Below the pieces are notes generated by a model, which ran no database searches, was not told the origin of the DNA, and saw nothing but the letters and a program-made list of their open reading frames with translations. A stretch of 30,569 bases of DNA from Clostridia bacterium (GTDB lineage Bacteria > Bacillota > Clostridia > Christensenellales > CAG-138): NCBI GenBank assembly GCA_045593465.1, contig JAZNWT010000066.1, forward strand, positions 1 to 30,569. The letters run 5' to 3'. A program made the translations under genes and the position numbers. Below are positions 1 to 22,376 of the stretch, in pieces. Positions within the stretch are counted from its first letter, which is position 1. Each line of letters begins with the position of its first letter.

Positions 1-2896
1 GCTTGCCGCTTTCATTTGCAACAATTACGGGTGCCATTGTGCTGGGCGACCTTGTCGATGCAACACCGTCACTTATGCAGGAGTTGAAGCAGAAACCGGT
101 ACCGGGTACTGCAACACTGCTTCCGAAGTTGTCACCCAATGTTACGTTTGCCGCAACTGCGTTTCCCCACTTATCGTAAGTTACAAGCATTGTTGTTGTC
201 TTATTGTCGAAAGGAACAACACCGTCGAGCAAATTGAGTATATCCTCTTTAACGCCAAGCGAAGATCCGCCACGTGCTGTCAAGCCGAAACCGACAGCCG
301 CCGCACGGACAGCATCTGCACTGTCGTGTCCGTATGAAGCCATATCATGACTCGACATTTTCGTGAGCATGCTTATGACACGCTGACCGCCGAAAGCCGT
401 ACCCGAACCTGCATAAAGCTTATAGCCTCTATACGTTGATGTCAGAGCCGTTCTTTCATAGCTTGTATAATTTGCAAAATCGTTTGTTGTTATAACGCCG
501 CCGATTGACCTAATGTAGGAAACAAGTTTTTCCGTAAATTCGCCTTTATAGAAAGCGTCTATGCCGCCGTCGCGGATAATTTCAAGCGTATTGGCTAAAT
601 CTTCGTTTCTGTAGGTATCTCCTACCTGAAGTGCTCCGCCCTCGCTATCCCGTGTAAATGTTTGCACCGCATACGGCAATGTTCCGCGTATCAGCCCTGC
701 TCTGTAAATGAATTCTTCACCAACTATGAATCCGCATCTTGCAAGCTCGATTACAGGATTAAGCACTTCTTCGAGAGTCATTGTGCCGTATTTTTCAAGC
801 ATTGAAATAGCACCGTGTACCATGCCGGGAACAGACAGGCACTTTGCTTGGGGGCTTGAGCTTGCACCGCTCATAGGTGAAAGCGTCATGTAATCGTACA
901 CGAAATATCTGTCCTCATCTGCAAGATAAATCGTAGCAAGACCGCCGCCGCCTACAGAAGAACCCGAAGGCTCGCAAAGACCTACCGCAAACATTGTTGC
1001 AACTGCCGCATCTATTGCGTTACCGCCTGCCTTGAGTATATCAAGACCTATCTTTGAAGCATATGCACTTGCACTTGATACAGCACCCTTTGTGCCGACC
1101 GAGCCCGTCTTGAATGTGTCACCCTCTATATTGCTCGGCACTTCCTCTGTGGGAATCGGCATTGCCGTAGGCTTGGGTGTAGGAGTAGGCTGAGGAGTTA
1201 TTTCACTTGTTGGTTTCGGTGTGGGTAAGCTGTTTCCCGATATATCTTTCCAGCTGTTTGCTGTTATACTTTCAGGCAATGTATTGCTCTGAGCGTATCT
1301 CTCAACTATGGAGCAGAACAAATACAAAAGTGATTCATAGCTCATATTGCCCAATGCGGTCTCGACGTAGCTGGGTACCATCATGTTATATTGAACAAAT
1401 TTGCATATTTTCTCTGCTGCCGTTTTATATTCATCGACAGTCAAAGCACCACTGTTCATACTTTCTGCCGTTCTCTCGCAGTTATCGACTGCATACATCG
1501 GCACTGTTTTATAAGACGTATCATTCACAAATATTGCCAATGTACTTAAAAGCTGAGGCATGCTTATTCTGACATCGCCCATTGTTATGTATGCAGGGAT
1601 ATCTTTAGTTATTTCTATTGTTTTCTTTACTCGCAAAGCCGCCTCAAAAAGTGTGCTTTTGGGCACATATCTCACAGGCTCGCTCTTATCATCATATGAC
1701 GGTTTTTCCGTAAAAGCAGGTGTTCTGCTTGGAGTTACCGGTACAGTTGCTTGCGTGGGAATAGGTGCAGCAAGTGCCGTGCCCGTTATTGTTTTCCATG
1801 ATTTTACCTGAACGGTTTCCAAAACAGTGCCTGAAGCATACATCTGTGCAACTATGTTTGAGAAGGTATGCACAAGCGTTTCAAAGCCTATTTTACCTAT
1901 GCTTGAATCGACATAGCTTACCGCCCTGCCCTCCGCCTGACAGAAATCAAGTATACTTTGTGCTATGGACGCATATTCGTTAAACTCAAGAATGCCTCCG
2001 CCGGTATCTTCGCCCGACTGCTGAGCCTTTTGTCTGTCATAATAATATATTTCTTCGGTTAATGTTCGATTATATGTATCAACCACTATTCTTGCCATAA
2101 GCTCTAAAAAGCTCGGCATCGAAAATCTTAAATTTCCCACTGTAGCATACAGCGGCAATTCTTTATTACGCTCGATTGCCGTATACACACGCAAAGCACT
2201 CTTTTTTGCCAATTCCGAAAATACGGAATCTGGCATGGGTGCAGGATGCGGTGTTGGTGTGGGAACGGGAGTGGGTGTGGGAGGCGGCGTTGAAGCCGAT
2301 GAGGAAATTTCCGCCCACGAATAAACCGTTACATAGTTCGGCAATGCACCGTTTTCATTGTAGTAATTTAATATTTTTGCCCATGAATAGACAAGATTTT
2401 CAAAGCCCACTTTTATTGTGGAATTTCTGCTGCTTTTATATGAGCAATAGTTTGCCGCCAAATCGTACTGTTCAATAAAATCGGAGTTTCTTTGGGACAT
2501 ATCAATATAATCGTCCTGTACTCTTCTAACTCCCATTTCTTCCGCTTTTTCGGTTGTAATATATATTTTCATTTCCGCAGTCACTGCATCACTCGGACTT
2601 TGCGGCATCATAACTTCTTCTATTGTAAGGTCTGAGTTTACGCCGTTGTGTATATTGAGAACGGTATCACACGCAAGCTTGAAATACTGCCCCAAATTTA
2701 TCTCGTTTTTGCCGACTGAAACAGTTTGAGGGAGTGAACAATATGTATCTATATATACTTTCAAATTGCTTGATGCATCCAAAATCTCCTGTCTGCTTAC
2801 AGTCCGGCTACTATCCGCAAAGGTTTTCGGAATAAAGGCAAAAAGCATTATAATTGCCATCATCAAAGCTGTATTCTTTACTGCATTCTTTTTCAT
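1..2896 (-). CDS. Secreted PMBR-like module (x3)-gamma-glutamyltranspeptidase fusion, paralog 1; 3'-partial, runs off the left window edge
   Basis: Hand translation from ATG at 2896 (RBS AAGGAG at 2904-2909) gives 965 codons with no stop down to position 2. Signal peptide MKKNAVKNTALMMAIIMLFAFIPKTFA; three wall-binding-type modules (e.g. [28 protein letters not shown]); GGT motifs [29 protein letters not shown] and [25 protein letters not shown] (predicted nucleophile Thr codon 194-196). Absent from the ORF track because its stop lies outside the window. Confidence 0.93.
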   Translation of the reverse strand, partial: MKKNAVKNTALMMAIIMLFAFIPKTFADSSRTVSRQEILDASSNLKVYIDTYCSLPQTVSVGKNEINLGQYFKLACDTVLNIHNGVNSDLTIEEVMMPQSPSDAVTAEMKIYITTEKAEEMGVRRVQDDYIDMSQRNSDFIEQYDLAANYCSYKSSRNSTIKVGFENLVYSWAKILNYYNENGALPNYVTVYSWAEISSSASTPPPTPTPVPTPTPHPAPMPDSVFSELAKKSALRVYTAIERNKELPLYATVGNLRFSMPSFLELMARIVVDTYNRTLTEEIYYYDRQKAQQSGEDTGGGILEFNEYASIAQSILDFCQAEGRAVSYVDSSIGKIGFETLVHTFSNIVAQMYASGTVLETVQVKSWKTITGTALAAPIPTQATVPVTPSRTPAFTEKPSYDDKSEPVRYVPKSTLFEAALRVKKTIEITKDIPAYITMGDVRISMPQLLSTLAIFVNDTSYKTVPMYAVDNCERTAESMNSGALTVDEYKTAAEKICKFVQYNMMVPSYVETALGNMSYESLLYLFCSIVERYAQSNTLPESITANSWKDISGNSLPTPKPTSEITPQPTPTPKPTAMPIPTEEVPSNIEGDTFKTGSVGTKGAVSSASAYASKIGLDILKAGGNAIDAAVATMFAVGLCEPSGSSVGGGGLATIYLADEDRYFVYDYMTLSPMSGASSSPQAKCLSVPGMVHGAISMLEKYGTMTLEEVLNPVIELARCGFIVGEEFIYRAGLIRGTLPYAVQTFTRDSEGGALQVGDTYRNEDLANTLEIIRDGGIDAFYKGEFTEKLVSYIRSIGGVITTNDFANYTSYERTALTSTYRGYKLYAGSGTAFGGQRVISMLTKMSSHDMASYGHDSADAVRAAAVGFGLTARGGSSLGVKEDILNLLDGVVPFDNKTTTMLVTYDKWGNAVAANVTLGDNFGSSVAVPGTGFCFNSCISDGVASTRSPSTMAPVIVANESGK

Positions 2897-2921
2897 ATTT
2901 CTGCTCCTTATGCGTGCTTCG

Positions 2922-2967
2922 AAAAAAGACACCCACAGATTATTATAATCTTTCTTGCAGGTGCCTT
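2922..2967 (-). terminator. Stem-loop with U-tract between paralogs 2 and 1; may alternatively overlap a promoter/operator for paralog 1
   Basis: Minus strand AAGGCACC...GGTGTCTT followed by TTTT, with inner palindrome AGATT-ATAAT-AATCT; a TATAAT (2947-2942) lies in the loop. Confidence 0.5.
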
Positions 2968-3033
2968 TCAGTATCTTTATTTTAAAGAATAATTCATGTC
3001 ACACCTCTGCAAATTATTATGCCACAAAACGCA

Positions 3034-6000
3034 TCAATAAGCAAATGACATATATTCTCGTCTGTGGTCCGCCGCAGACATTACAGTTCCGTCATTATCA
3101 ATATGTATTGCAGGAACGCAGCCTACACCGCTGCTGTACTCGCCCTCGCTTGTTGTAAGCGAATAACCCCAATTTCTCAAAGTTTGAAGTGTTGAATCGC
3201 TGTACCTTGTTTCAATAGTCATTGCCGAGCTTGAAGCATAGCCGAAGAATCTCGGAGCATTTACAGCTTCACATACATTCATGCCAAAATCGAGAATGTT
3301 ACTGATTGTAATAGCTGTTGCCGTGATTATAGCCTGGTCACCGGGTGAGCCGACAATTATCATGGGTTTGCCGTTGTTCCCCGCAACAATCGCAGGTGCC
3401 ATGGTGCTCTGCACTCTCGAAAGTGATGAGCCGGTGCTTGTTGTCATACCCGAATTAAAGCAGAATCCCATACCGGGTACAGCAACGGAGCAACCGAAAT
3501 TATAGCCCAATGTTACGTTTGCGGCAACCGCATTGCCCCACTTATGGTATGTTACAAGCATGGTTGTAGTCTTGTTGTCGTACGGTACAACATCGTTGAG
3601 CAGGTTAAGCATATCTTCCTTAACGCCGAGTGATGAACCTCGTGAAGTCATTCCGAATGCTACCGCCGTTGCTCTTACTGCCTGTGCACTGTCATGACCG
3701 TAGGAAGCCATATCATGTGCCGACATTTTATTGAGCATGCTTATCACTCTTGAACCACCCTGTGCAGTACCTGAACCTGCGTATACATTATAGCCCCTGT
3801 AATTTGTTGTGAGCGGCTCACGTTCAATACTTGTGTACTGCACAAAATCTTCCTTTGTGATGGTGCCGCCTATGGACTGTATGTAATCTACCATTGCATC
3901 GGTAAACGAGCTGTTATAAAATGCTTCGATTCCGCCATCACGGATTATTGTAAGCGTTGAGGCAAGGTCTACATTTGCAACCGCGTCACCTGCCTGAAGC
4001 GTACCGCCGTAAATATCCCTCGTGAACTGCTGTGTGGGATATGCATACTTTGTATTTATCTGCTTGGATCTGTATACAAACTCTTCGTCAATATAGAAGC
4101 CTCTCTTTGCAAGCTCTATAACGGGATCAAGGATCTGTGCAAGCGACATTGTGCCGTACTTTTCAAGCATTGTTATTGCACCGTGTACCATACCGGGTAT
4201 GCACATCATCTTTGCAAGCACAGTTGTGCTTCCGACACGTGTCGGGGTCTGTGCCATATAGTCCATTATGAGATATCTGTCCTCATCTGCAAGGTAGATA
4301 ACAGCCAAACCGCCGCCGCCTACCGATGAGCCCGAAGGCTCACAAAGACCTACCGCAAACATTGTTGCAACTGCCGCATCCACAGCATTTCCGCCTGCTT
4401 CAAGTATATCAAGACCTATCTTTGATGCATATGCACTTGAGCTTGATACAGCACCGTTTGTGCCCACTGCACCGCTGTTGAATGTATCACCCTCTATATT
4501 GCTGTTTACCTTAGCTGTGGGAACAGGTGCAACATCATAGCTTGCAGGAGGTGTAAACAGGGGGGCAAATGTGGGAGTCGGCGTGGGCGTCGGAGGCACC
4601 GTGGGCGTGGGCGGAGGTGTTATCTCACTTGTAGGCATAGGAGTCGGAAGTGTTTCTCCGCTCACAGTGCCGAAGCTGCTCACATTAAGCGTTTCCGAAA
4701 GCGTGTTGTTTTGAGCATTGTATGATGAAACGATCTTGCAGAAAATCACAACCAATGCTTCAAAGCTCACTTCGCCCAAAACGGTCGCAACATAGCCCGG
4801 CACCATACCGTTGTATTGCACAAATTCACAAACTTTCCGTGCAACACGCATATATTCTTCTTTATTCAGACTGCCTGCTGTCATATTTTCTGCAGACTGT
4901 TCGGGATTTTCCACTGTATACACGGGTGCGTGTGACATTGCGGTGTCCGTTACAAACTTGCATAATGTGTTTAAAAGCTCAGGCATTGTTAAACGAATAT
5001 CATCAAATGCAATATACAACGGAAGCTCTTTATTCAATTCAATGAACTTGCCTGTTCTTGAAGCCGCTTTTTGAAGCATTTCTGCTTCCATATAATATTT
5101 CACACTGCTGCCTGTTTGTGAAGCTGAAACATCCGGGGTAACATGAGCTGTCGGAGAAGGCAATACAACTTCGGATGTTGGAACAGGTAAAGGAAGTGCT
5201 GTTCCCGAAATATCGCTCCATAATTTGACCGAAACAGAATTTGCAAGCACCTCATTGTTTGAATAAGCGGCAAGTATGCGTGAATAAACATAAACAAGCG
5301 TTTCAAAGCCAAGCTTACCCAATGATGAATCAACATAACTTACGGCAGTATTTGTTGCTTCGGCATAGCCTATTATAAATCCTGCAATTTCTATATACTC
5401 GTCAGCAGTCAGGAAGCCTGCCGTTATATCTTCGCCCGACTGTTCGGGATTTTTTCTTCTGTAATAGGGTATTAAGCTCTTATTCACGCCATTTTTAAGC
5501 TCAATAACCGTTCTTGCCATAGCTTCCAGGAAGCTTGGCATATCTAATTTTACAGTTCCCACCGTTACGCTTTGGGGAAGCTTTTTATTGTTTGATATTG
5601 ACAAACTTACACGCTTTGCCGCCTTTATAAAAAATGCCGCGGACTGTGCATTACTCAAAAACGGTACATCACTAACTGCCACAGTGGGAACAGGTGTGGG
5701 CGTAGGCGTGGGAGTTTTCGTGGGAGTCGGAGTTTTTGTAACAACGGGGGTTGTTGCACCCGCTGCTATCTCGCTCCATGAATTTACGGTAACATAATTG
5801 GGCAATGCTCCGTTTTCATTATAGTAATTAAGTATTTTGGACCATGAATAGACAAGGTTTTCAAATCCCACTTTAACAGTTGAATTTCTGCTTTTCTTAT
5901 ATGAGCAATAGTTTGCCGCAACACCGTTGGTCGCTATAAATTCCGAGTTTCTTACGGACATATCATAATAATCGTCCTGCACTCTCCTAACGCCGAGCGA

Positions 6001-6354
6001 CTGTGCGGTTTCTGCATCCACATATGCCTTAAAGCTTTCCGTAACCTCATCGGCAGGATTCTGCGGAAGGTCTACCGTTTCTATGGAATGAGCAATGCTT
6101 GTGCCGTCATGTATAGCTATTACCGCATCGCACGCAAGCTTAAAATACTGTGCGGCATTTATCGCAGTGCCGCCCATATCTATTTGAGCAGGAATTGATG
6201 AATAGGTGTCGATATAGCCTTTCACCCAAGTTGAAGCAGTCAAAATATCCTGCCTGCTTACCGTGGTTGCCGCACTCGCGAACGATAAAGGCAAAATTGA
6301 AGCAAGCATTATAACTGCCGATATAATTGCTGTCGCCCTTTTCATCGTTTTCAT
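3034..6354 (-). CDS. Secreted PMBR-like module (x3)-GGT fusion, paralog 2
   Basis: 1119-aa ORF in the track; more likely start is ATG 6354 (MKTMKRATAII...; GAGAGGA about 8 nt upstream). Signal peptide ending ...SFASA; three modules separated by PT linkers; GGT domain ~4500-3034 with KT-TTMLVTY (nucleophile codon 3565-3567), STMAP and GSPGDQ. Confidence 0.93.
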   Translation of the reverse strand: MKTMKRATAIISAVIMLASILPLSFASAATTVSRQDILTASTWVKGYIDTYSSIPAQIDMGGTAINAAQYFKLACDAVIAIHDGTSIAHSIETVDLPQNPADEVTESFKAYVDAETAQSLGVRRVQDDYYDMSVRNSEFIATNGVAANYCSYKKSRNSTVKVGFENLVYSWSKILNYYNENGALPNYVTVNSWSEIAAGATTPVVTKTPTPTKTPTPTPTPVPTVAVSDVPFLSNAQSAAFFIKAAKRVSLSISNNKKLPQSVTVGTVKLDMPSFLEAMARTVIELKNGVNKSLIPYYRRKNPEQSGEDITAGFLTADEYIEIAGFIIGYAEATNTAVSYVDSSLGKLGFETLVYVYSRILAAYSNNEVLANSVSVKLWSDISGTALPLPVPTSEVVLPSPTAHVTPDVSASQTGSSVKYYMEAEMLQKAASRTGKFIELNKELPLYIAFDDIRLTMPELLNTLCKFVTDTAMSHAPVYTVENPEQSAENMTAGSLNKEEYMRVARKVCEFVQYNGMVPGYVATVLGEVSFEALVVIFCKIVSSYNAQNNTLSETLNVSSFGTVSGETLPTPMPTSEITPPPTPTVPPTPTPTPTFAPLFTPPASYDVAPVPTAKVNSNIEGDTFNSGAVGTNGAVSSSSAYASKIGLDILEAGGNAVDAAVATMFAVGLCEPSGSSVGGGGLAVIYLADEDRYLIMDYMAQTPTRVGSTTVLAKMMCIPGMVHGAITMLEKYGTMSLAQILDPVIELAKRGFYIDEEFVYRSKQINTKYAYPTQQFTRDIYGGTLQAGDAVANVDLASTLTIIRDGGIEAFYNSSFTDAMVDYIQSIGGTITKEDFVQYTSIEREPLTTNYRGYNVYAGSGTAQGGSRVISMLNKMSAHDMASYGHDSAQAVRATAVAFGMTSRGSSLGVKEDMLNLLNDVVPYDNKTTTMLVTYHKWGNAVAANVTLGYNFGCSVAVPGMGFCFNSGMTTSTGSSLSRVQSTMAPAIVAGNNGKPMIIVGSPGDQAIITATAITISNILDFGMNVCEAVNAPRFFGYASSSAMTIETRYSDSTLQTLRNWGYSLTTSEGEYSSGVGCVPAIHIDNDGTVMSAADHRREYMSFAY

Positions 6355-6385
6355 ACTCTTCGTCCTCTCTGTTTTGTGTTTTAAT

Positions 6386-6433
6386 TTAGGCACCCATAAG
6401 CACTATTCTTTTTAAATGCTGTAGGGTGCCTAA
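6386..6433 (-). promoter_or_regulatory. Intergenic stem-loop without U-tract between paralogs 3 and 2 (possible mRNA stabiliser or processing site)
   Basis: Perfect 10-bp inverted repeat TTAGGCACCC (6386-6395) / GGGTGCCTAA (6424-6433) with further imperfect inner pairing; not followed by a T-run on the minus strand. Confidence 0.5.
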
Positions 6434-6472
6434 TCAATCAGTTATTATTGTTCAAAACTGCTTGATTTTGAA

Positions 6473-9400
6473 TCAATATGCAAATGACATATACTCACGT
6501 CTGTGGTCAGCCGCCGCCATAATAGTTCCGTCACTATTAACATGTATTGCCGATACGCAGCCAACGCCGCTGCTGTATTCGCCCTCGCTTGTTGTGAGCG
6601 TATAGCCCCAATTCTTAAGCGTGTTGCGTGTTGTTGAGCTGTATCTTGTTTCGATGGTCATTGCCGACGTTGATGCATAACCGAAGAATCTCGGAGCGTT
6701 TACAGCCTGGCATACATTCATACCGAAGTCAAGAATGTTGCTGATTGTAATAGCTGTTGCCGTAATTATAGCCTGGTCACCGGGTGAGCCGACGATTATC
6801 AACGGAGTACCGTCCGTATCTGCAACGATCGTGGGAGCCATTGTGCTCTGTACTCTTGAGAGTGATGTGCCGGTGCTTGTTGTCATGCCCGAGTTGAAGC
6901 AGAAGCCGGTGCCGGGTACTGCAACCGAACAGCCGTAGTTGTAACCCAAAGTTACGTTTGCGGCAACCGCATTGCCCCACTGGTCGTAAGTTGTGAGCAT
7001 TGTTGTTGTCTTGTTGTCGTAAGGTACAACATCGTTGAGCAAGTTGAGCATATCTTCCTTAACGCCAAGTGATGAACCTCTTGAAGTCATACCGAAAGCT
7101 ACTGCTGTTGCACGCACTGCATTTGCACTGTCATGACCGTATGAGGACATACTGTGACTTGACATCTTGCCGAGCATCGAGACAACTCTTGAACCGCCCT
7201 GTGCACTGCCCGAACCTGTATAAACATCGTATCCTCTGTATGTTGTTGTAAGAGGATCTCTTTCAATACTTGTATACTGCTGGAAGTCGGACTTCTTGAT
7301 AGTACCGCCGATGGACTGGATGTAGTTAACCATTGTTGTTGTGAACGAGCTGTTATAGAAAGCATCTATACCGCCGTCACGGATAAGCTCAAGCGTTGTT
7401 GCAAGGTCTTCATTCCTGAATGCATCACCTGCTTCAAGTGTGCCGCCGTTCATATCCTTTGTGAACAGATTTGTGGGGTATGCGTAATTTGTATTTATCT
7501 GTGTTGCTCTGTAAACAAACTCATCGTCAATGTAGAAGCCGCTTCTTGCAAGCTCAATAACAGGATCGAGAATTTCAGCAAGTGTCATTGTGCCGTACTT
7601 TTCAAGCATTGTGATTGCACCGTGTACCATGCCCGGTACGCACATCATCTTTGCAAGCACTGTTGTACTGCCGACTGTTGACGGAGTCTGTGCCATGTAG
7701 TCCATTATGAGATATCTGTCTTCATCTGCAAGGTAGATAACTGCCAAACCGCCGCCACCGACCGATGAACCGGAAGGCTCGCAAAGACCTACCGCAAACA
7801 TTGTTGCAACTGCCGCATCTATTGCGTTACCGCCTTTTTGGAGGATATCAAGACCTATCTTAGATGAATATGCACTTGAGCTTGATACCGCACCCTTTGT
7901 ACCGACAGAGCCGCTCTTAAACGTATCGCCTGTTATCGTGCTTACAGTTGTTGCCGTGGGTTTGGGAGCAACAGTATAATCAGGTGAAGGTGTTGAAGGT
8001 GAAGTTGTCGTTGAGGGTGATGAGGTAGTTGTTGTTTCCGAATCAGCCGCAGGTACATACTGAAGTGTTACACTTGAGGGCAATGCACTGTTTGAATCAT
8101 AGTATGCAAGTATGCGTGTGAACATAAGCAAGCCTGCTTCATACGTCATCTGACCTGTGCAGTTTGAAACAGCAAATCCGTTTGCGTTGCTTGATGTTGT
8201 GGGATACGATGCACTTGCACCGACTGCATTCGTTGATGCACCGTTGCCCGTTTCCATGTATACCGTCTGACGGATTGCAAAGTTCATATAGAATGTCTTT
8301 GATACCGATGTAAGCTCAGTACCGTCCGTATACTTGATCGTATAGTTTGCAACAAGTGTGGGTACATCATATGAGTAGCTTGTTTTCTTATATGTGGCAC
8401 TTGTGTTGCCGTTGTAAATATCCTGTATAGCCTTTGCCGCAATAATGAAGTAATTCTGCGGTGCAACCGTTACACCGTCAACCGTTAAGCCGCCCGGATA
8501 GAATGCCGTGCCCGATGTGTAGCCTGCCAAAGCTGTATTTGCTGCAGCAGCAAGCTCCTTAATGGTGAATACTCCATCGGGTGTTGCTGTGGGAACAGGT
8601 GTCGGTGTTGCTGTGGGAACGGGCGTCGGTGTCGCCGTCGGAACGGGTGTGGGTGTCGCGGTCGGAACAGGTGTGGGTGTTGCCGTCGGAACAGGAGTGG
8701 GTTCCTCTGTGGGAACGGGAGTGGGTTCCTCTGTGGGAACAGGAGTGGGTGTTACTTCGCTCGTAGGAGCGGGAGTTGCAACAACCGTACCGGATACCGA
8801 TGCCCATGACTTGGGAGCTATTGTTTCTGCCAAACCGTTCTCTGCATCATAGCTTGATGCCAATTCACAGAACATTATAAGCAATGATTCAAAGCTCAAT
8901 TCGCCGAGTGACGTTGAAACATAGCTGGGAGCCATTGAGTTATAGTATACGAATTCGCAAATCTTTGCCGCAACTCTCTTGTATTCTTCCATGCTCAATG
9001 TGCCGTCGGTCATGCTTTCAGCTGTCTTCTGGCACTTTGCAACGGTGTATATCGGATACTCTGTCATTTCAGTATCCAATACAAATACTGCAAGCGTACT
9101 CAAAAGCTGGGGCATTGTAAGACGGAGACCGTCAGTTGTTGCAGTTATGTAAGAAGGAACTTTGCTGTTTGCGTTCACTGTCTTTAATACTCTTGCTGCG
9201 GTAGCAATAAGTATATCCTTTGTTATTGTTCCGGTTGCTTGAGCACTTTCAATGAATGCAGGAAGTGTTGCTTCGGGAACGGGAGTTGCCGATTGTGCAG
9301 GAGCCTGTGTTACAACAGGAGCTTCGGTTGCAACAGGAGCTTCGGTGGGAAGTACAACTTCTTCCGTGGGCAAAGGAGCAGGAAGTGCTGTGCCTGTTAC

Positions 9401-10642
9401 ATCACCCCATGCAACAACATCAACACTCGATGCCAATGCACCGTCTGCACAGAACTGTGCAAGAAGCTTTGCATATGTGTGCACGAGTGTTTCAAAGCCG
9501 ATTTTTCCTATGCTTGAATCAACATAGCTTACTGCTCTGTCAGTTGCTTCATAATATGCGAGTATTTCTTTTGCGATTTCAATATACTCTGAAACCTCAA
9601 GCGTTCCGCCCGTTGTATCTTCGCCGGATTTTTCTGCCTTTTCGCGTTCATAATAATATGTTACGTCGCCGCTTGTGCCTTCATATTTTTCAACTACAAC
9701 TCTTGCTGCAAGTTCCAAGAAGCTTGCCATTGAGAATTTAACCGTACCTATTGTCAGATATGTAGGTACCTTTTTATTTGTTTCAATTACCGTGTACAGA
9801 CGCTTTCCGCCTTTTACAGCCCAGTCTGTTGATATTGCATCGGGAGTTGGTGTGGGTTCAGCTGTGGGCTCGGGCGTGGGAGCTTCTGTGGGTGTAGGTG
9901 TAGGTGCAGCCGTTGTGGGTGCAACTGTGGGAGTAGGTGTGGGTGCAGCCGTTGTGGGTGCAGCCGTTGTGGGTGCAACCGTGGGTGTTTCCGTGGGTGT
10001 TGCCGTGGGTGTTACAGTAGGTGTTGCAGTGGGTGCAACAGTGGGTGTCGACGCATTTGCCGCTATGCTTGCCCATGAATCAACGGTTACATAGTTGGGA
10101 AGCGAACCGTTTTCATTGTAGTAATTTAATATTTTTGCCCATGAATAAACAAGGTTTTCAAAACCAACCTTTATTGTGGAGGATCTGCTCTTTTCGTATT
10201 CGCAGTAATTTGTCGCAATACCGTCCTCCATAAACTCGGAATTTCTTTCGGACATATCGGTGTAGCTGTCATAATGACGCGAACCCGACATTGAGCTTCC
10301 TTTATATTTTGTAACATAAATTTTAAAACTGCTGCTTACAGCATCTGAAGGGCTACTCGGCATTGATACAGACTCAACCGTGTAAGTTGAGTTACTATTA
10401 CCGTCATTAAGATCGATTATAGCATCACAGGCAAGTTTAAAATACTGTGCAGTATTGATAGAATTGCCTCCAACGCTTACACTGCTCGGGAGTGAGCAAT
10501 ATGTATCAATGTAAGACTTGAGGTTGCTCGATGCAGTAAGTATCTGCTTCAATGTTACCGTTGTTGCCGCACTTGCAATCGACACCGGAAGTATTGAAAC
10601 CACCATAATCACTGCCATCAAAAACGCTAAATACCTTTTCAT
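6473..10642 (-). CDS. Secreted PMBR-like module (x4)-GGT fusion, paralog 3 (1389 aa)
   Basis: RBS GGAGG at 10653-10657; signal peptide [25 protein letters not shown]; four modules, long Pro/Thr/Ala linkers and a Ser/Thr-rich linker; GGT domain ~7940-6473, nucleophile Thr codon 7004-7006. Confidence 0.95.
8582..8749 (-). repeat. Coding tandem repeat, 7 x 24 nt (PTPVPTEE x2, PTPVPTAT x5), Pro/Thr linker
   Basis: Direct 24-nt periodicity with synonymous variation and no spacers; lies inside the paralog 3 ORF. Confidence 0.9.
9839..10050 (-). repeat. Coding low-complexity Pro/Thr/Ala linker ([11 protein letters not shown]-type repeats)
   Basis: Imperfect repeats between modules 1 and 2 of paralog 3. 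Confidence 0.85.
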
Positions 10643-10675
10643 TTTTTCGACGCCTCCACTTTTATTGTCTATACT

Positions 10676-10728
10676 TTAACAAGTGTTTATTAAAAAAAAA
10701 TTAAATAGACACTGTTAACATTATAACA
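10676..10728 (-). promoter_or_regulatory. Extended -10 promoter (TGnTATAAT) for paralog 3, followed by an imperfect inverted repeat in the 5' leader
   Basis: Minus strand TGTTATAAT at 10728-10720; arms TTAACAGTGTCTATT (10718-10704) and AATAAACACTTGTTAA (10691-10676) around a T-rich loop. Confidence 0.55.
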
Positions 10729-10796
10729 TTATCATTTTTCGCCACATTGTTCAATAGTTTGTTAAAATATATTTTTTCCTTATGCTGCACTGCACT

Positions 10797-10827
10797 AAAA
10801 AAAGCGGATGTTATACCCGCTTTTTTT
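10797..10827 (-). terminator. Rho-independent terminator after paralog 4
   Basis: AAAAAAAGCGG-N9-CCGCTTTTTTT inverted repeat with flanking A/T tracts, 16 nt past the stop at 10844. Confidence 0.85.
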
Positions 10828-10843
10828 ATTTTTCTTGTTCCTG

Positions 10844-13800
10844 TTAGTATGCGTACGACATATATTCGCGTCTTATATCCGCCGCAGTATAAACCGTGCC
10901 GTCCTTGTCAACATAAATTGCCGATACACAGCCAACGCCGTCGCTGAATTCGTCCTCTGCATACAGTGTGAAGCCCATTTCTTTAAGGTCATCTATTACC
11001 CACGGAGAATAACGTGCTTCTATTGTTATTGTCGAGCCGCTTCCGTAAAGTCTGGGAGCGTGTATTGCCTGGACAACAGTCATGTCGAAATCCAGCATAT
11101 TGCTTATTGTTATTGCAGTTGCCGTAATGATTGCACTGTTACCGGGAGAGCCTACACCAAGCATCGGCGTACCGTCTTCATGAGCAACAATGCAGGGTGA
11201 CATCGTACTGCCTACTCTTTTGCCGACCGCACAATTGTGTGATGACATGCAGAAACCCGTACCCGGCATTGCTATTGCAGAGCCGAAGTTTGCACCCAAG
11301 GTATTGTTTGAGGATACCATATTACCGTATTTATCACGTGTTACAAGCATTGTGGTTGATTTCGTATCAAACCAATCAACATCTTCCGTAAGCTCATCAA
11401 GACTCAATACGAGCTTTTCATTCATACTGCTTGACGGGCGTATACCGAATGAAGTAGCGGTTATTCTTACGGTTTCACTGTGGTCATGCCCCAAAAGTGC
11501 CAAATCGTAATTATCCATTTTTGCAAGCATATTTATAACGCTTGCACTGCCCGTTGCACTGCCAGAACCGCCGTATATGGTATAGCCTCGATACTCTCCT
11601 ATTCTCGGTTCTCCTTCAAACGCTTCGTATGCCGCAAAATCCTCACGTGTTATTGTACAGCCTTGACTCTGCAAATATGCACAAAGCTCATCGGTAAATT
11701 CGCTGTCGTAAAAATACTCGACACCGTTATCGCTTATTGCCTGCAATACATTTGCAAGGTCTTCGTTTTTGAATATATCGCCCTCTTGGAAATATTCGCC
11801 GTCATTTCTCATCAGGCTGTTAAGGTATGTACCCTCCTTATCGCCTACAAGTCTTGACTTTTTGCAGAACGTATTTGTAACCGCAAAGCCCTCTCTTGCA
11901 AGCTTGATTACGGGAGCAAGAACTTGCTGTAATGTCATCGTGCCGTACTTTTCAAGCATCTGTGAAGCACCCAGCACAATACCCGGAACACCCACAGGTC
12001 CACTTCCCGTACCGGCCGTCATATAGTCGTATGTTATGTATTTATCTTCGTCCGCAAGATATATAACGGTTATTCCGTCGCCACCGATGCTTGAACCCGA
12101 TGGCTCGCAAAGTCCGACAGCGAATATCGTTGCAACAGCCGCATCTATTGCGTTGCCGCCTGCTTTGAGTATATCAACGCCTATTTTTGATGCGTACTTG
12201 CTGCTGCTTGCAACGCCGCCGTTTTGTCCGACGCCGCCTGTGCCGTAAAGGTCACCCTCCATCACACCTATGCCGTTATACGGTGTGGGAACGGGAGTGG
12301 GCATGGGCGACAATGTTACCATAGGAGTCGGGAGTACCATACCGGTAAGGCTTTCCCAGGTTTCCACCGTCACGGAGTCAGGCAAAACGTAATTATAATC
12401 TTCAAACTGTTCAACTGTTTTTGCGAAGAAATACAGGCTTGTTTTATATCCCATAGCACCGCTTGATGTTTGAACATACGAGGGTGCAAGACTTGTTTTT
12501 TTCGTATAGTCAAGCATTTCTTTTGCAAGCTTTATATACTCTTCTTTGCCAATTACTGCACCGTTTTTGATATTCTCGCCGTCACCCTCGGGATTGTCGG
12601 CATTTATGAGTGCAACGTCCACAAAAAGATTTCCGTCAATATAAAGAACGGTATTGAGCATGAGCATGAGGAAATCGGAAAGCTCAAGCGTATTTCCGTC
12701 TACCGTTATTCTGCTCGGAAGCTTTTGGGAATATTTAACCGATGAAACAAGTCTTTTTGCCGCAAGAGCAATGCTTGTTAAATCAGCCGTTTTTTCATTT
12801 CTTGCACGGCTTACGGTATTGTTACTTTCGGGAACAAACGACGGTGTTGCCGTATATTGCGGCTCTATGGAAGCTGTCTCAAGCTTTTCTCCCGTTATCC
12901 TTTCCCATGTTCTCACGGTAATGCTTTCAACAAGCTCGTCACTGCTGCTGTATGCAATTATTTCCGCATAGGTATATATAAGATTTTCAAAGCTTATGCT
13001 GCCCAAGCTGCACGGCATAAATTCGGGAGCTGTTCCCTCGTCAGACATATAAGCCAATATGCAGTATGCAGTTTCAAGATACTCGCTCCTTGAAAGCTTG
13101 CCCTCCTTCAAATTTTCCTTGCCCTTTGTAATATTTAAAACATTAAGCACGCTAAAGCCGCTGTCATTTTCGCACGCAACATCCAAAACAGTATCGGCAA
13201 AAAGTGAAAGCAATTCGCTCATATAAAGCTTCATATCGTCCATCATGACGCTCATCGGAAGCTTTTTGTTTCTTTCTATTGTAATAACTACACGCTCTGC
13301 GAGATGCTTTACCTGTATAAACTCTATTCTGCTGCCGGCTTGGTCTTTTTCGCTGTCCGCATCTTGGGCAATGAATATGTGCCACGGAACAATGTTGATA
13401 CTCTCCGGAAGAACATTGTTTTTGCCGTAGAAGGAAAGTATCTGTGCAAATGCAAACACTGCATTATTATATCCTATCCTGCCATTTACAGCAGTAAGAT
13501 AATTTGCCACTCTTCCGTTTTTCTCAATGAATGTGATTCCCTTTTGAGCTATTTCAATATAATCGTCCTTTGGCACCACGAACATTTCCGTGGTATCTGC
13601 AGGTGCAGGTGCAGCAGAAGCATCGACAAACATTACATCTTCATTATAGCCTTCGTTTATGCTTACCGTTGCTCTGAAAGCAAGGTTCATATACTGCCCC
13701 ATATTCATATCAACGCCGCCGACGTTTATTGTTTCGGGCAATGCACTGTTCTTTCTTATTTCACGCTCCAAGCTTATCGAAGCCGCCACTACCTGCTCAA

Positions 13801-14404
13801 CGGTATACATTTTACCCGTAGGTGCAACCGTGGGTGTTGCCGTGGGAGCTGTGGTTTTAAGGTCCTCACCGCTGAACGCTTTCCACGATTCAACCGTTAA
13901 TGTAAGAGGAAGTCTTTCATTTTCATTATAGAATTTAAGAACACGCGAAAACGCGTAGAGCACTCCCTGATAGGATATTCTGTTGTTTTTGGGAGTTGTG
14001 CTATGATTGGGTGCTCTGTTGTTGTTCTTTACGAAAGTCAATGCATTCTGAGCTATTGTTACATAAGCTTCGGTGTCCAGCGTTTCACTGCCCGAAAACT
14101 TTTCCTGCGGCTTGGGAGCAGCTTCACACGCAATTACTTCAATCTGTGCAAGAGTATCCGCCTCCGTGCTGAGTGCAACAACGGCACTGAGCATCAAAGC
14201 ATAGTAACACGCCGTATCCACCGTATCCTGCCCTATTTTTACGGTGTCGGGGATTTTTTTATTTGCATTTATGTATTCTGTTGCCGTTGCCGCCGCATCA
14301 AGCACCTGTGCAATGCTGTAAGTTTGGGAAGCGGCACTCGAAAGTGTGGGTATGTATGCAAAAAGCATCATAAACACTAAAATAAAAGATATTATTTTTT
14401 TCAA
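10844..14404 (-). CDS. Secreted PMBR-like module (x4)-GGT fusion, paralog 4
   Basis: The track starts at TTG 14413; TTG 14404 (MKKIISFILVFMMLFAYIPTLSSA) fits RBS AAAGGGG (14414-14420) with 9-nt spacing. Modules such as YVTIAQNALTFVKNNNRAPNHST...ISYQGVLYAFSRVLKFYNENERLPLTLTV; GGT domain ~12270-10844, KS-TTMLVT nucleophile codon 11354-11356. Confidence 0.93.
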   Translation of the reverse strand: MKKIISFILVFMMLFAYIPTLSSAASQTYSIAQVLDAAATATEYINANKKIPDTVKIGQDTVDTACYYALMLSAVVALSTEADTLAQIEVIACEAAPKPQEKFSGSETLDTEAYVTIAQNALTFVKNNNRAPNHSTTPKNNRISYQGVLYAFSRVLKFYNENERLPLTLTVESWKAFSGEDLKTTAPTATPTVAPTGKMYTVEQVVAASISLEREIRKNSALPETINVGGVDMNMGQYMNLAFRATVSINEGYNEDVMFVDASAAPAPADTTEMFVVPKDDYIEIAQKGITFIEKNGRVANYLTAVNGRIGYNNAVFAFAQILSFYGKNNVLPESINIVPWHIFIAQDADSEKDQAGSRIEFIQVKHLAERVVITIERNKKLPMSVMMDDMKLYMSELLSLFADTVLDVACENDSGFSVLNVLNITKGKENLKEGKLSRSEYLETAYCILAYMSDEGTAPEFMPCSLGSISFENLIYTYAEIIAYSSSDELVESITVRTWERITGEKLETASIEPQYTATPSFVPESNNTVSRARNEKTADLTSIALAAKRLVSSVKYSQKLPSRITVDGNTLELSDFLMLMLNTVLYIDGNLFVDVALINADNPEGDGENIKNGAVIGKEEYIKLAKEMLDYTKKTSLAPSYVQTSSGAMGYKTSLYFFAKTVEQFEDYNYVLPDSVTVETWESLTGMVLPTPMVTLSPMPTPVPTPYNGIGVMEGDLYGTGGVGQNGGVASSSKYASKIGVDILKAGGNAIDAAVATIFAVGLCEPSGSSIGGDGITVIYLADEDKYITYDYMTAGTGSGPVGVPGIVLGASQMLEKYGTMTLQQVLAPVIKLAREGFAVTNTFCKKSRLVGDKEGTYLNSLMRNDGEYFQEGDIFKNEDLANVLQAISDNGVEYFYDSEFTDELCAYLQSQGCTITREDFAAYEAFEGEPRIGEYRGYTIYGGSGSATGSASVINMLAKMDNYDLALLGHDHSETVRITATSFGIRPSSSMNEKLVLSLDELTEDVDWFDTKSTTMLVTRDKYGNMVSSNNTLGANFGSAIAMPGTGFCMSSHNCAVGKRVGSTMSPCIVAHEDGTPMLGVGSPGNSAIITATAITISNMLDFDMTVVQAIHAPRLYGSGSTITIEARYSPWVIDDLKEMGFTLYAEDEFSDGVGCVSAIYVDKDGTVYTAADIRREYMSYAY

Positions 14405-14450
14405 AACAAACAACCCCTTTACTTTTTATTTGCTGTATTATCCTATACCG

Positions 14451-16988
14451 TCAATATGCGTATGCCATATATTCACGCCTGTAATCCGCACCTGCATATA
14501 TAACATCGTTATCGTCAACATATATTGCAGAAACACAGCCAACGCCGCTGCTGTATGATTCCATGGTATTCAAGCTGTAACCCATGGCTCTTAATCCATT
14601 GAGCGTTGCACTTGAATAGCGGTTTTCAATAGTCAAGGTTGAGCCGCTTCCGTAAAATCTCGGAGCGTGTATTGCCTGACTTACATTCATGCCGAAATCA
14701 ATTATATTGCTTACGGTGATTGCCGTTGCCGTAATGATTGCACTGTTTCCGGGTGAGCCTGCACCGAGCATGGGAAGCCCGTCATTTCCCGCAACTATAA
14801 CAGGTGCCATGGTGCTCTGTATTCTTGATGACGGTACTCCCGTGCTTGTGTTCAAGCCGGAATTGAAGCAGAAGCCCGTTGTGGGTACTGCAACACCGCA
14901 GCCGAAGTTATCGCCCAAAGTATTGTTGGAAGCAACCATATTGCCCCATTGGTCATATGTGACGAGCATCGTTGTGCTCTTCATATCGTACCATTCGCAG
15001 TTTTCAAGATTGCTCAAGTCAAGCAATTCATCATCTTTTTGAGAAATCAGACGCGATGACGGTCTTACACCGAAAGCTGTTGCCGTTATTCGTACCGTTT
15101 CTGCATTGTCATGCCCCAAGGAAGCAAGGTCATATTCACTCATGCTGTTGAGCATGGATATAACTCTTGAGCCACCCTGAGCCGTGCCCGAGCCTGCATA
15201 AACCTTGTAGCCTCTGTAGGTTGTGGTAAGCGGAACACGCTCAAGTGATGTATAATTCGCAAAATCCGTTCTCGAAACGGAGCTGCCGTTATTTATGAGA
15301 TAATCGCACATCATATCGGTAAATTCGCTGTTGTAAAAACCCTCTATGCCCTTATCCGATATGAGCTGTAATGTGTCTGCAAGGTCCGGATTTTTATATA
15401 TTTCGCCCGTATTATAAAGTTTTCCGTTATTACGATAGAGATTTACGGCATAAGGATATTCCGTGGGAACTATGGTCATCTTATAAGCCATGGTAGATGT
15501 TACCTCAAAGCCCTCACGTGCAAGCTTGATGACGGGTGCCAAAATTTCCTGACGCGTCATTGTTCCGTATTTTTCAAGCATACTCAACGCACCGTGAACA
15601 ATGCCGGGGATCATTATTTTGTTTGCCCTGCCACTGCCCGTAAAACTCGACGGAGTTTGGGACATATAATCAAATACTATGTATTTTTCTTCATCCGCAA
15701 GATAAATTACCGACAGACCACCGCCGCCTACCGACGAGCCCGACGGTTCACAAAGCCCGACAGCAAATATTGTTGCAACAGCCGCATCTATTGCGTTGCC
15801 GCCTTTTTGGAGTATGTCAAGACCTATCTGTGATGCAAATTTGCTTGCACTCGATACTGCACCGTATACGCCCACGGCACCGGTTTCAAACTCGTCACCT
15901 TCCATTGCACCTACGCCCGCATACGGAGTGGGAGTGGGACGCGGTGTTGCAGTTGCCGTTTCAACAGGAAGCGGAAGCTCTTTTCCCGTGAGTGTTTTCC
16001 ATGTTTTCAGCTGATATGTTTCGGGTAAATAGTATTTATGCCTATAATGGCTTATTATTTCAGCAAGCAGACATATACCTGTTTCAATGCCGGCTTTTCC
16101 AAGCGATATCTCACAGTAGCTCGGCACCATGCCGCTTTTCTGAGTTTGTTTTACAACCTCACGTGCTATTTCTATATAATCATCCCGTGTTATATTGCCG
16201 TCTTTTAAATCTTCGCCGTTATTTTCAGGCTGTTCCGACTTGATTATTTCAATATTGCTTACCGTATTCGTTGAAAAATCCATCACAAGCTTTGCCAATG
16301 AATAATAAATTTCGGGCATTGTAAGCCTTGCCGAATCCGTAATTATATATACCGGCAGTTCCTTTTCAACTTTTACCGTCGTTAAAATACGCTCCGCCAC
16401 ATTCATAAGGGCTATTCTGCCGACTATCTTTGAACCGTCCTGCTTTTCTTCTGCCTGCTTCTGTTCAAAGGGCGATTCGAATTTTAAGCGGACAATCGAT
16501 GGCAAAGTATTATTTTCAATATAGCTTATAAGCACTCTTGAAAACGCAACCAGCATTGTTTCATAGCTTATTTTTCCGTATTTCGATGCACCGTAATTCG
16601 GCACTCTGTTATAGAGTGCCATAAACTTTGAAGCACTTTTTGCAATGCTCATATATTCGCTCTGCTGTGCATATATGTTGATAGTATTTCCGTTTGAATT
16701 TATGGGCTTTAAAAGCTTTTCATTCAAAGCTATGCTGCCTGTTTTTTTCGCTTCAACAGCCACTATTGCATCGGTTATAAGCTGGAAGCATTTTTCAACG
16801 GCAACGCGGTCATTTCCTATGTCAAGCTCCAACGGAACAGCTCTGCCTGAGTCAACAGCATTGCACACCTGATATGCTACGCTTCCGATTTCGGACAAAG
16901 TATAAGAAGTGTCGCTTTGTGCAGTTGCAAGCGGTACTGACGCAATCAATAAAATAAACGCAAGTATAAATGCTGTTATTCTTTTCAT
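14451..16988 (-). CDS. Secreted PMBR-like module (x2)-GGT fusion, paralog 5 (845 aa)
   Basis: Signal peptide MKRITAFILAFILLIASVPLATA; two modules (YMSIAKSASKFMALYNRVPNYGASKYGKISYETMLVAFSRVL); GGT domain ~15920-14451, nucleophile codon 14973-14975. Short gap and no terminator before paralog 4 suggest co-transcription. Confidence 0.94.
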   Translation of the reverse strand: MKRITAFILAFILLIASVPLATAQSDTSYTLSEIGSVAYQVCNAVDSGRAVPLELDIGNDRVAVEKCFQLITDAIVAVEAKKTGSIALNEKLLKPINSNGNTINIYAQQSEYMSIAKSASKFMALYNRVPNYGASKYGKISYETMLVAFSRVLISYIENNTLPSIVRLKFESPFEQKQAEEKQDGSKIVGRIALMNVAERILTTVKVEKELPVYIITDSARLTMPEIYYSLAKLVMDFSTNTVSNIEIIKSEQPENNGEDLKDGNITRDDYIEIAREVVKQTQKSGMVPSYCEISLGKAGIETGICLLAEIISHYRHKYYLPETYQLKTWKTLTGKELPLPVETATATPRPTPTPYAGVGAMEGDEFETGAVGVYGAVSSASKFASQIGLDILQKGGNAIDAAVATIFAVGLCEPSGSSVGGGGLSVIYLADEEKYIVFDYMSQTPSSFTGSGRANKIMIPGIVHGALSMLEKYGTMTRQEILAPVIKLAREGFEVTSTMAYKMTIVPTEYPYAVNLYRNNGKLYNTGEIYKNPDLADTLQLISDKGIEGFYNSEFTDMMCDYLINNGSSVSRTDFANYTSLERVPLTTTYRGYKVYAGSGTAQGGSRVISMLNSMSEYDLASLGHDNAETVRITATAFGVRPSSRLISQKDDELLDLSNLENCEWYDMKSTTMLVTYDQWGNMVASNNTLGDNFGCGVAVPTTGFCFNSGLNTSTGVPSSRIQSTMAPVIVAGNDGLPMLGAGSPGNSAIITATAITVSNIIDFGMNVSQAIHAPRFYGSGSTLTIENRYSSATLNGLRAMGYSLNTMESYSSGVGCVSAIYVDDNDVIYAGADYRREYMAYAY

Positions 16989-18706: not shown

Positions 18707-18733
18707 ATTTTTTATTCGATTTTTATGCTTATA

Positions 18734-19237: not shown

Positions 19238-19280
19238 GTTTTTCTCCTTTTGTTATGTATTTAGTTTTTTTATTTATAAT

Positions 19281-20813: not shown

Positions 20814-20838
20814 GCTTTATTTAAGTAAACACAAAACG

Positions 20839-20862
20839 AAAAAACTCCCTCAAGGGAGTTTT
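20839..20862 (-). terminator. Rho-independent terminator
   Basis: AAAACTCCC-TCAA-GGGAGTTTT hairpin with an A-run that reads as the U-tract on the minus strand, downstream of ORF 20923-21636. Confidence 0.75.
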
Positions 20863-20922
20863 AACAGGAATTTTTCATTATTCACCATTCATTATTCATT
20901 TTAAAGTCATTCATGACCTTAA

Positions 20923-21636: not shown

Positions 21637-21674
21637 CGCTTTGCTCCTTCCGTATTTTTATTATGAAAAAATAA

Positions 21675-22283: not shown

Positions 22284-22376
22284 GAAAACCATCCTCCTGA
22301 AAAAATCAAACTGTTTCCTCAATCGTAGCATATAAAAAGGCAATTCGTCAATCCGTAACCGTAACAGATAGTTAAC

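Follow-up and report, generated by a model that had tools for sequence, protein, structure and literature searches.

To our knowledge, the cysteine endoisopeptidases of phages (the Pei enzymes) are the only class of enzyme known to open pseudomurein. These enzymes cut Ala-epsilon-Lys (PMC4592898) and are being explored for lowering ruminant methane (PMC6189367, PMC8963448). The pseudomurein stem runs N-alpha-linked Glu-gamma-Ala-epsilon-Lys-Ala, with a further Glu gamma-bonded to Lys, and the polymer has both an N-alpha-substituted Glu-gamma-Ala and a gamma-Glu-Lys bond (PMC10117817; PMC4592898); for its glycan, a 2011 review knew of no cleaving enzyme (PMC3210951). Here we analyze a tandem array of five genes on a contig from a Clostridia bacterium (hereafter the window: all 30,569 nucleotides of JAZNWT010000066.1, which is contig C66 of assembly GCA_045593465.1). 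Each gene joins putative PMB (pseudomurein-binding) modules to a domain of the gamma-glutamyltranspeptidase (GGT) family, and in that domain the nucleophile is kept while most residues that hold a free glutamate donor are replaced.

How individual donor-site residues contribute to GGT activity is known from mutants. Escherichia coli R114L is inactive, and Bacillus licheniformis R109M and R109L keep 4-5% of hydrolysis with no transpeptidation; D433N abolishes transpeptidation and gives activity on glutaryl-7-ACA, a donor without an amine; E. coli S463T retains 60% activity; and GGTs that lack a lid loop accept poly-gamma-glutamate (PMC8062742). We compare the window paralogs with these enzymes, place their donor site on a tree and weigh what it says about the bond that they may cut.

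A tandem array of PMB-GGT fusions

The source genome is a metagenome-assembled genome (MAG) of 1.69 Mb in 221 contigs (92% complete, 42.6% GC), and the sequencing runs that contain window DNA come from animal feces or gut, including goat and sheep. Window positions 2-16988 hold five co-oriented open reading frames (ORFs) on the minus strand, tandem paralogs that each encode a Sec-type signal peptide, then two to four modules of ~150 amino acids (aa), Pro/Thr linkers and a C-terminal domain of ~480 aa. In a Pfam profile search, all five ORFs matched PF01019 (E 5e-57 to 3e-84; 194-284 bits against a cut-off of 27) and PF09373. Outside the array, the genes of the window resemble those of Bacillota. 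Two extra PMBR/GGT paralogs lie on contigs C11 and C155 of the same genome, and an ortholog of paralog 5 (P0006) was found on a syntenic MAG contig. The array consists of:

2..2932, minus strand: paralog 1 (P0005), DYMT at 884-895, KTTTML at 185-202; the contig end cuts the ORF after ...STMAP
3034..6393, minus strand: paralog 2 (P0001, 1119 aa), with signal peptide, PMB modules, linkers and GGT domain; PF09373 79 bits, PF01019 263 bits
6473..10642, minus strand: paralog 3 (P0002, 1389 aa), DYMA at 7691-7702, KTTTML at 6995-7012, GSPGDQ at 6773-6790
10844..14413, minus strand: paralog 4 (P0003, 1189 aa), DYMT at 12017-12028, KSTTML at 11345-11362, GSPGNS at 11135-11152; four PMB modules
14451..16988, minus strand: paralog 5 (P0004, 845 aa), DYMS at 15660-15671, KSTTML at 14964-14981, GSPGNS at 14742-14759

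The remodeling was first described for 3034-4300, which covers the C-terminal four fifths of the paralog 2 GGT domain, and this domain is our reference below.

Donor-site remodeling

Residues are given in E. coli GGT numbering, from a phmmer alignment of P0001:620-1119 to the E. coli GGT T391A precursor 2e0w and a MAFFT alignment of 125 sequences, comprising E. coli ggt (P0124), Bacillus anthracis capD (P0125) and 123 homologues, 29 of them canonical (Arg114-type). The phmmer alignment of paralog 2 has no gaps around the motifs quoted here:

3037..4521, minus strand: GGT-family N-terminal nucleophile (Ntn) hydrolase domain of paralog 2, residues 625-1119 (phmmer to 2e0w, AlphaFold2, Foldseek)
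4255..4257, minus strand: Met713, equivalent to E. coli Arg114 (alpha-carboxylate ligand), within DYMA (phmmer, MAFFT)
3565..3567, minus strand: Thr943, equivalent to E. coli Thr391, predicted autoprocessing site and nucleophile (phmmer, model superposition)
3505..3513, minus strand: Thr961-Leu962-Gly963, in the place of E. coli Thr409-Leu410-Asn411, with the helper Thr conserved and Gly substituted for the alpha-amine ligand Asn
3439..3456, minus strand: NSGMTT in place of E. coli NNQMDD, with Gly982 for Gln430 and Thr985 for Asp433; 10 residues to the S-T-M motif
3403..3408, minus strand: Ser996-Thr997, equivalent to E. coli Ser462-Ser463 (phmmer, MAFFT)
3337..3342, minus strand: Gly1018-Asp1019, equivalent to E. 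coli Gly483-Gly484, the oxyanion-hole backbone (phmmer, MAFFT)

The initial annotation, made by eye, had claimed that all five paralogs keep the nucleophile and have lost the residues that recognize free glutamate, and hidden Markov model, MAFFT and structure-based alignments agree with it on the donor-site residues. Thr391 and Thr409 are kept in all five paralogs and position 411 is Gly. Position 114 is Met throughout (DYMT, DYMA, DYMA, DYMT and DYMS in paralogs 1-5), as it is in 12 of 12 sequences of the PMBR-fused clade; stand-alone relatives have Met or Leu here, and canonical GGTs and CapD have Arg. Arg337 is also replaced, and no basic residue is conserved in the PMBR clade as a substitute for Arg114, bar a Lys two residues before the cleavage site. 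Position 430 is Gly, His (in paralog 4) or Cys, position 433 is Thr or a gap, and 462-463 are Ser-Thr in all five, a substitution that is conservative and mild at 463. Set against a donor site for free glutamate, the paralogs show four non-conservative replacements and the change of Ser463 to Thr, with only Ser462 kept. Position 483 is Gly; at 484, two paralogs have Asp and two have Asn, paralog 1 ending before the site. This replacement of the second oxyanion Gly had been noted correctly, but even the 29 canonical homologues have Ala, Ser, Thr or Gly at 484, and the site is not strictly Gly there either. TIGR00066 was matched at 277.5 and 275.8 bits, below its equivalog cut-off of 357.85; P0016, a relative without PMB modules, passes the same model at 402.8 bits.

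The deletions described for the lid loop and the large subunit were likewise borne out. Only 9-10 residues separate positions 434 and 461 in the paralogs, compared with 28 in E. coli, 18 in lid-less canonical GGTs and 16 in CapD. The stretch equivalent to E. coli 353-383 is missing from every sequence of the PMBR clade, and the distance from the aligned start to the nucleophile is 318 residues versus 363 in E. coli, making the large subunit ~45 aa shorter. Counting from the second Thr of K[T/S]TTML reproduces the predicted small subunits of 177, 177, 170 and 174 aa in paralogs 2-5. Because the five paralogs share ancestry, their agreement at these sites counts as one event, not five.

Fold, processing and selection

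An AlphaFold2 model of paralog 2 residues 625-1119 (pLDDT 92, pTM 0.92) superposes on 2e0w with a VIA-align Z of 49.3 and a root-mean-square deviation of 2.2 A over 452 residues (Foldseek TM 0.85). The structural comparison with E. coli GGT for which the initial annotation had called agrees with the sequence alignments: model residues 319-495, of which 319 is Thr943, superpose on E. coli 391-580 at 1.7 A, placing Thr943 on Thr391. Just upstream of the cleavage site the model has a disordered linker (pLDDT <50, model residues 297-316), and autocatalytic cleavage at K[T/S]-TTML is predicted from the conserved site together with this linker. The cephalosporin acylase 2nlz, LmbA and HpxW also appear among the structural matches (Foldseek, VIA-align).

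The equivalents of Thr391, Thr409 and Gly483 are invariant in the 12 PMBR-clade sequences, and an S-T-M-x-P motif is invariant across sequences down to 54% identity. The GGT domains of the paralogs are 54-85% identical with nonsynonymous to synonymous substitution ratios (dN/dS) of 0.12-0.22, values that indicate purifying selection on the domain. A secreted, self-processing Ntn amidase of the GGT family (MEROPS T03) is the best explanation of these features. On the combined record of alignments and substitution rates, we regard the remodeling of the donor site as real and selected, and the pocket as probably open, to judge from the deletions.

Substrate chemistry of the remodeled pocket

The natural changes of Asp433 to Asn or Thr and of Arg114 to Met or Leu mirror the laboratory mutants described above. 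These mutant data, the Ser411 and Asn433 of CapD and the relatives found beside pgs genes (see below) all favor the earlier proposal that the donor is an N-substituted Glu embedded in a polymer. Its extension to pseudomurein did not hold up equally: nothing in the pocket is specific to pseudomurein, and the pocket chemistry fits bacterial murein (L-Ala-gamma-D-Glu/isoglutamine-X) or poly-gamma-glutamate equally well. Read from its residues, the pocket indicates an N-substituted, polymer-embedded gamma-glutamyl substrate and hydrolase-only chemistry.

The pocket as a clade trait

In the MAFFT alignment, ~80 stand-alone lipoprotein homologues of 580-630 aa that lack PMBR share the remodeled pocket, some of them from MAGs of Spirochaetales and Sphaerochaetaceae. 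Their signature is Met/Leu114, Gly411, His430, Asn433, Ser-Thr462-463, Asn or Ser484 and no lid of the E. coli type, while canonical homologues have Arg, Asn, Gln/Glu, Asp and Ser-Ser at positions 114, 411, 430, 433 and 462-463. On a maximum-likelihood tree rooted on E. coli GGT, the remodeled sequences group together in a single clade with support 1.0. Nested inside it, also with support 1.0, is a clade of the 12 PMBR-fused sequences; its sister is a stand-alone Asn484 clade (0.994), and a Ser484 clade lies outside both. CapD branches outside the remodeled clade. Given this nesting, the remodeled donor site is ancestral to the PMBR clade and thus older than the PMB fusion.

The pocket had been put forward as support for wall targeting that was independent of the binding modules. 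This argument fails, since the same pocket occurs in the PMBR-less homologues and is ancestral on the tree; inherited from lipoproteins linked to polyglutamate, it is not an independent proof of pseudomurein. More generally, a pocket argument drawn from one gene family must be placed on the tree before it is counted as independent evidence. The PMBR paralogs belong to the remodeled clade by monophyly and by the core signature at 114, 411 and 463, and they lack its other features, namely the lipobox, (mostly) His430/Asn433, and a neighborhood with DctM, AstE and DUF6305.

Neighborhoods were examined at six stand-alone loci (L106, L108, L110, L112, L113 and L114). A DUF6305 gene is present in six of six, and a gene for a DctM-type or similar-sized permease of 420-433 aa in five of six, followed in four by an ORF of 48-51 aa. 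Most loci also have one or two AstE/AspA-type (M14-like) amidases of ~380 aa or unannotated neighbors of equal size, one of the AstE/AspA-type neighbors weakly resembling the murein tripeptide amidase MpaA (E 1.4e-7). PgsB (over its equivalog cut-off), PgsC and TIGR04332, a "poly-gamma-glutamate system protein", lie within 7 kb in three of the six, and L113 and L114 have tandem GGT pairs. Such a setting is what one would expect if an enzyme tethered to the surface trimmed a gamma-glutamyl polymer or peptide whose products were then taken up and broken down in the cell, and the recurrent module is probably an uncharacterized system for turnover and uptake of poly-gamma-glutamate (or gamma-glutamyl peptides). 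A large clade that is routinely annotated "gamma-glutamyltransferase" is thereby tied to poly-gamma-glutamate loci while its donor site is unable to hold free glutamate, and these annotations are probably wrong in function.

The wider clade also contains P0101 (L114:5152-7050), a LysM-GGT fusion with Ala114, Gly411, His430, Asn433 and Thr463, which adjoins SLH-domain proteins and a GH18/EndoS-like protein. We regard P0101 as a putative murein-directed counterpart of the PMBR-GGT fusions.

Searches with generic GGT motifs returned no closer relatives. The 80 loci listed from genome contigs were all ordinary GGTs at 28-34% identity; the 11 matches on viral contigs included none that was close and no viral PMBR-GGT lysin (most at 23-35% identity, two short fragments higher).

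A probable second remodeling step upon PMB fusion

The PMBR clade differs further from its stand-alone relatives. The lipobox Cys, conserved in the stand-alone clades, is absent (a gap column), and the lipobox is replaced by a Sec signal and two to four PMB modules. Relative to both stand-alone clades, the 353-383 segment (~30 residues at the C-terminal end of the large subunit) is deleted and 9-10 more residues are lost after position 434, in the lid region. At sites conserved in the parent clade the changes are H393M, T407N, N433T, S294A and A157M; His430 becomes Gly, Cys or Arg in most members, and Trp485 of the sister (Asn484) clade becomes Gln or Ser. The paralogs also vary among themselves at 430, 433, 484 and 485. 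We suggest that this second step accompanied a change of substrate, with diversification thereafter.

Sequence change has been much faster in the binding modules than in the catalytic domain. Between paralogs 4-5 and paralogs 1-3, the first PMB modules share only 21-28% identity, and between the orthologs P0004 and P0006 the modules are 57% identical and the GGT domains 85%. Such fast evolution is compatible with diversification toward different surface targets.

PMB modules and their genomic context

In paralog 4 (P0003), all four modules can be aligned with the whole PMB domain (residues 4-139) of ORF35 from Methanobacterium virus Drs3 (E 6e-13 to 6e-7). This viral protein of 300 aa combines PMBR and a transglutaminase core with a sub-threshold match to Peptidase_C71 (Pei); the five window paralogs have no match to Transglut_core or Peptidase_C71. 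A homologue search with the N-terminal modules of P0004 returned only the ortholog at E<=1e-5 and no close archaeal donor. ESM-Atlas look-alikes of one module are Methanobacteriota PMBR clusters (scores 0.78-0.81), which we take as a lead only.

Elsewhere in the genome, a 718-aa protein (C28:885-3038, L003) aligns over its last PMB module and catalytic domain to full-length ORF35, with 32% identity (E 7e-44), and its other modules align to the ORF35 PMB domain. Three more proteins combine PMBR with transglutaminase (C63:2292-4160, L007; C63:4861-6780, L008; C65:4136-6604, L017). It is unusual for a bacterium to have homologues of a lysin-type protein of a methanogen virus. Three further proteins combine PMBR with GHL10/DUF4015-like domains, one also with a dockerin (C30:6572-9757, L016; C30:9761-12772, L010; C11:6746-10465, L019), and are candidates for cleavage of the pseudomurein glycan. 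PMBR is also fused to BspA-type LRR proteins, and PMBR ORFs in the genome number at least 20 in total. With a threshold of E<=1e-5, all three species of the genus had PMBR, against 0 of 200 further genomes of the order (8 genera of the same family among them) and 0 of 399 further genomes of the class.

Above the Pfam cut-off, cohesin is matched 7 times and dockerin 39 times in the genome, and PMBR, LRR_5 (BspA-type), transglutaminase or GHL10 domains recur on several of the dockerin proteins. This looks like the scaffold of a cellulosome-like system, one that displays wall-binding proteins or adhesins in place of, or in addition to, plant-fiber enzymes. Since PMBR and dockerin occur together on single proteins, PMBR is not the self-anchor there; by analogy with the carbohydrate-binding modules of cellulosomal enzymes, the dockerin looks like the means of self-attachment and PMBR like a module for substrate targeting. 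Searches of the genome found neither DUF6305 nor the ~380-aa amidase of the parent module.

Literature searches returned no paper that combines pseudomurein with gamma-glutamyltranspeptidase and none on a PMBR-GGT fusion or a bacterial pseudomurein-directed enzyme, and of the four papers found from 2016 onward that mention PMBR, none concerns bacteria.

Genes flanking the array

Directly upstream of the array, minus-strand genes at 17099-22343 encode a 535-aa glycosyltransferase-like protein, a 510-aa polytopic membrane protein and a 237-aa protein, along with two cyclophilin-type peptidyl-prolyl isomerases, one with a signal- or lipoprotein-like N-terminus. This gene order is kept beside the orthologous array in a related MAG, and these genes may work together with the secreted enzymes. 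Farther upstream (24250-25664, minus strand) is a two-gene pair, its translations judged by eye: a 274-aa protein that resembles an AbiEii-type nucleotidyltransferase toxin and, overlapping it, a 197-aa ORF that resembles an AbiEi-type antitoxin or regulator.

Discussion

We propose that the parent clade consists of endo-type gamma-glutamyl hydrolases that would act on chains with an acylated glutamate amine, CapD-like in function but not by descent. A polymer-type gamma-glutamyl amidase whose pocket is a clade trait is quite probable. In the window enzymes, the PMB domains would carry the fused catalytic domain to a wall polymer, where it would hydrolyze internal gamma-glutamyl isopeptide bonds with water as the acceptor. 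The likeliest target would be the N-alpha-substituted Glu-gamma-Ala stem bond of pseudomurein, or gamma-Glu-Lys, in gut Methanobacteriales, and the enzymes may act alongside the PMBR-fused Pei-like cysteine peptidases and GHL10-like glycosidases of the genome. As a whole this is the explanation that we consider best, with its chances of being right about even. Pseudomurein as the physiological substrate, for which we draw on PMB homology to the methanogen-virus protein, restriction to the genus, the companion PMBR proteins and habitat, falls a little short of an even chance. The broadest version also falls somewhat short of an even chance: a genus of animal-gut Clostridia may have recruited a polyglutamate-type GGT amidase and PMB domains of methanogen-virus type, now in at least seven paralogs with differing pockets, as a second and mechanistically new class of pseudomurein hydrolase (a Thr-nucleophile gamma-glutamyl isopeptidase), part of a toolkit with Pei-like peptidases and GHL10-like glycosidases, some on a cohesin-dockerin scaffold, for attaching to, remodeling or lysing Methanobacteriales.

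Several observations weigh against this proposal. Glu in both poly-gamma-glutamate and pseudomurein carries a free alpha-carboxylate, and pseudomurein does not obviously explain the loss of Arg114. Because this Arg is lost and CapD keeps it, an alpha-carboxyl that is amidated or otherwise neutral, like that of isoglutamine in many Gram-positive mureins, suits the pocket at least as well. With Asp or Asn at 484, the paralogs also recall G482E, a crippling mutant of B. licheniformis GGT (BlGGT) that keeps 4% activity (PMC8062742). The window modules are very diverged and their binding specificity is putative; for MTH719, binding by the PMB domain extends to wall material from lysed bacteria (PMC3210951). 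The genome gave no match to PgsB (TIGR04012) or CapC (PF14102), a result that speaks for the proposal but that at 92% completeness does not prove their absence.

The chief alternative is that these enzymes act on bacterial murein, their own or a neighbor's, where they would cleave or transpeptidate the bond between gamma-D-Glu (or D-isoglutamine) and the diamino acid, with PMB binding an N-acetylglucosamine-containing glycan common to murein and pseudomurein. In murein, L-Ala acylates the Glu amine, and many Gram-positives also amidate the alpha-carboxyl, a chemistry that would account for the absence of the amine ligands as well as of Arg114; the LysM-GGT fusion P0101 beside SLH proteins, the weakly MpaA-like AstE/AspA-type neighbor of one stand-alone homologue and the binding of lysed bacterial wall by MTH719 point the same way. 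However, a generic murein anchor would hardly be expected to be missing from each of the 599 further genomes sampled in the class, homology ties the modules and a companion enzyme to the Pei-like protein of a methanogen virus, and dockerins on several PMBR proteins already provide self-attachment. We consider murein unlikely, though it is the rival that deserves most attention. Rather improbable is retention of the presumed ancestral job, the depolymerization or trimming of poly-gamma-glutamate made by others, with the PMB modules as a mere surface hold. It suits the stand-alone relatives in pgs loci, the lid-less pocket and the Asn433 shared with CapD, but neither pgs genes nor the DctM/AstE/DUF6305 uptake module were found in the genome, and the PMBR clade has altered the parent-conserved His430, Asn433, Trp485 and His393 and suffered extra deletions, which suggests a changed substrate. 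A CapD-type role on a capsule of the bacterium's own was also considered and was rejected as the leading explanation, PgsB and CapC not having been found in the genome.

Two further alternatives question catalysis or chemistry. The GGT fold might serve as a binding or scaffold domain in pseudo-enzymes or adhesins, without processing or turnover, as the loss of Arg114, Arg337 and most donor-site residues and the likeness of Asp/Asn484 to the crippled BlGGT mutant would allow; yet the nucleophile Thr, Thr409, Gly483 and S-T-M-x-P stay invariant down to 54% identity under low dN/dS, and the same losses occur in a widespread parent clade whose genes sit in metabolic loci, making this very improbable. 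Least probable is a substrate that is not gamma-glutamyl at all. The GGT superfamily does include glutaryl-7-ACA acylase, HpxW and LmbA, the last two ranking with 2nlz among the structural matches, and most ligands for free glutamate are gone; but Ser462/Thr463 and the overall donor-site architecture remain, and linkage to pgs loci points to gamma-glutamyl chemistry.

If the pseudomurein proposal is true, an enzyme that cuts gamma-glutamyl bonds would add a second, orthogonal lytic activity on the wall that Pei enzymes attack, and the array would be the first hint that gut bacteria, and not just archaeal viruses, have weapons or grappling tools against methanogens.

Comparison with known systems

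E. coli Ggt (2e0w/2dbu) has the same fold as the window domains at ~30% identity, with equivalents of Thr391, Thr409, Gly483 and Ser462 and a nucleophile inside the precursor chain. Unlike it, the paralogs are without Arg114, Arg337, Asn411, Gln430, Asp433 and the lid loop, and their domain is fused to PMB modules, whereas E. coli Ggt stands alone in the periplasm. The Bacillus GGTs (B. subtilis 3a75, B. licheniformis 4y23; structural match Z 45) likewise have no lid loop but retain Arg113/109 and acidic amine ligands and use free gamma-glutamyl donors. The engineered D433N/D445N GGTs, which resemble class IV cephalosporin acylases, have lost the acidic alpha-amine ligand and shifted to amine-less donors (PMC8062742); they are point mutants with Arg114 intact, whereas in the remodeled clade the whole donor site is changed and conserved by selection.

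B. anthracis CapD (3g9k), a GGT-family enzyme that acts on a polymer with acylated Glu amines, is lid-less and substituted at 411 and 433 (Ser411, Asn433), and capD lies in the cap operon much as the stand-alone relatives of the window domain lie beside pgs genes. At 29% identity, CapD differs in keeping Arg114, Gln430 and Gly484 and in having no PMB modules, and no pgs/cap genes were found in the window genome. PeiW, PeiP and Drs3 ORF35 share with the paralogs the plan of an N-terminal PMB domain, with homologous PMB modules, followed by a catalytic domain that cleaves isopeptide bonds. Their catalytic domain is a transglutaminase-like Cys peptidase, in contrast to the Thr-nucleophile GGT fold of the paralogs, which by analogy with its family would be expected to cut gamma-glutamyl bonds.

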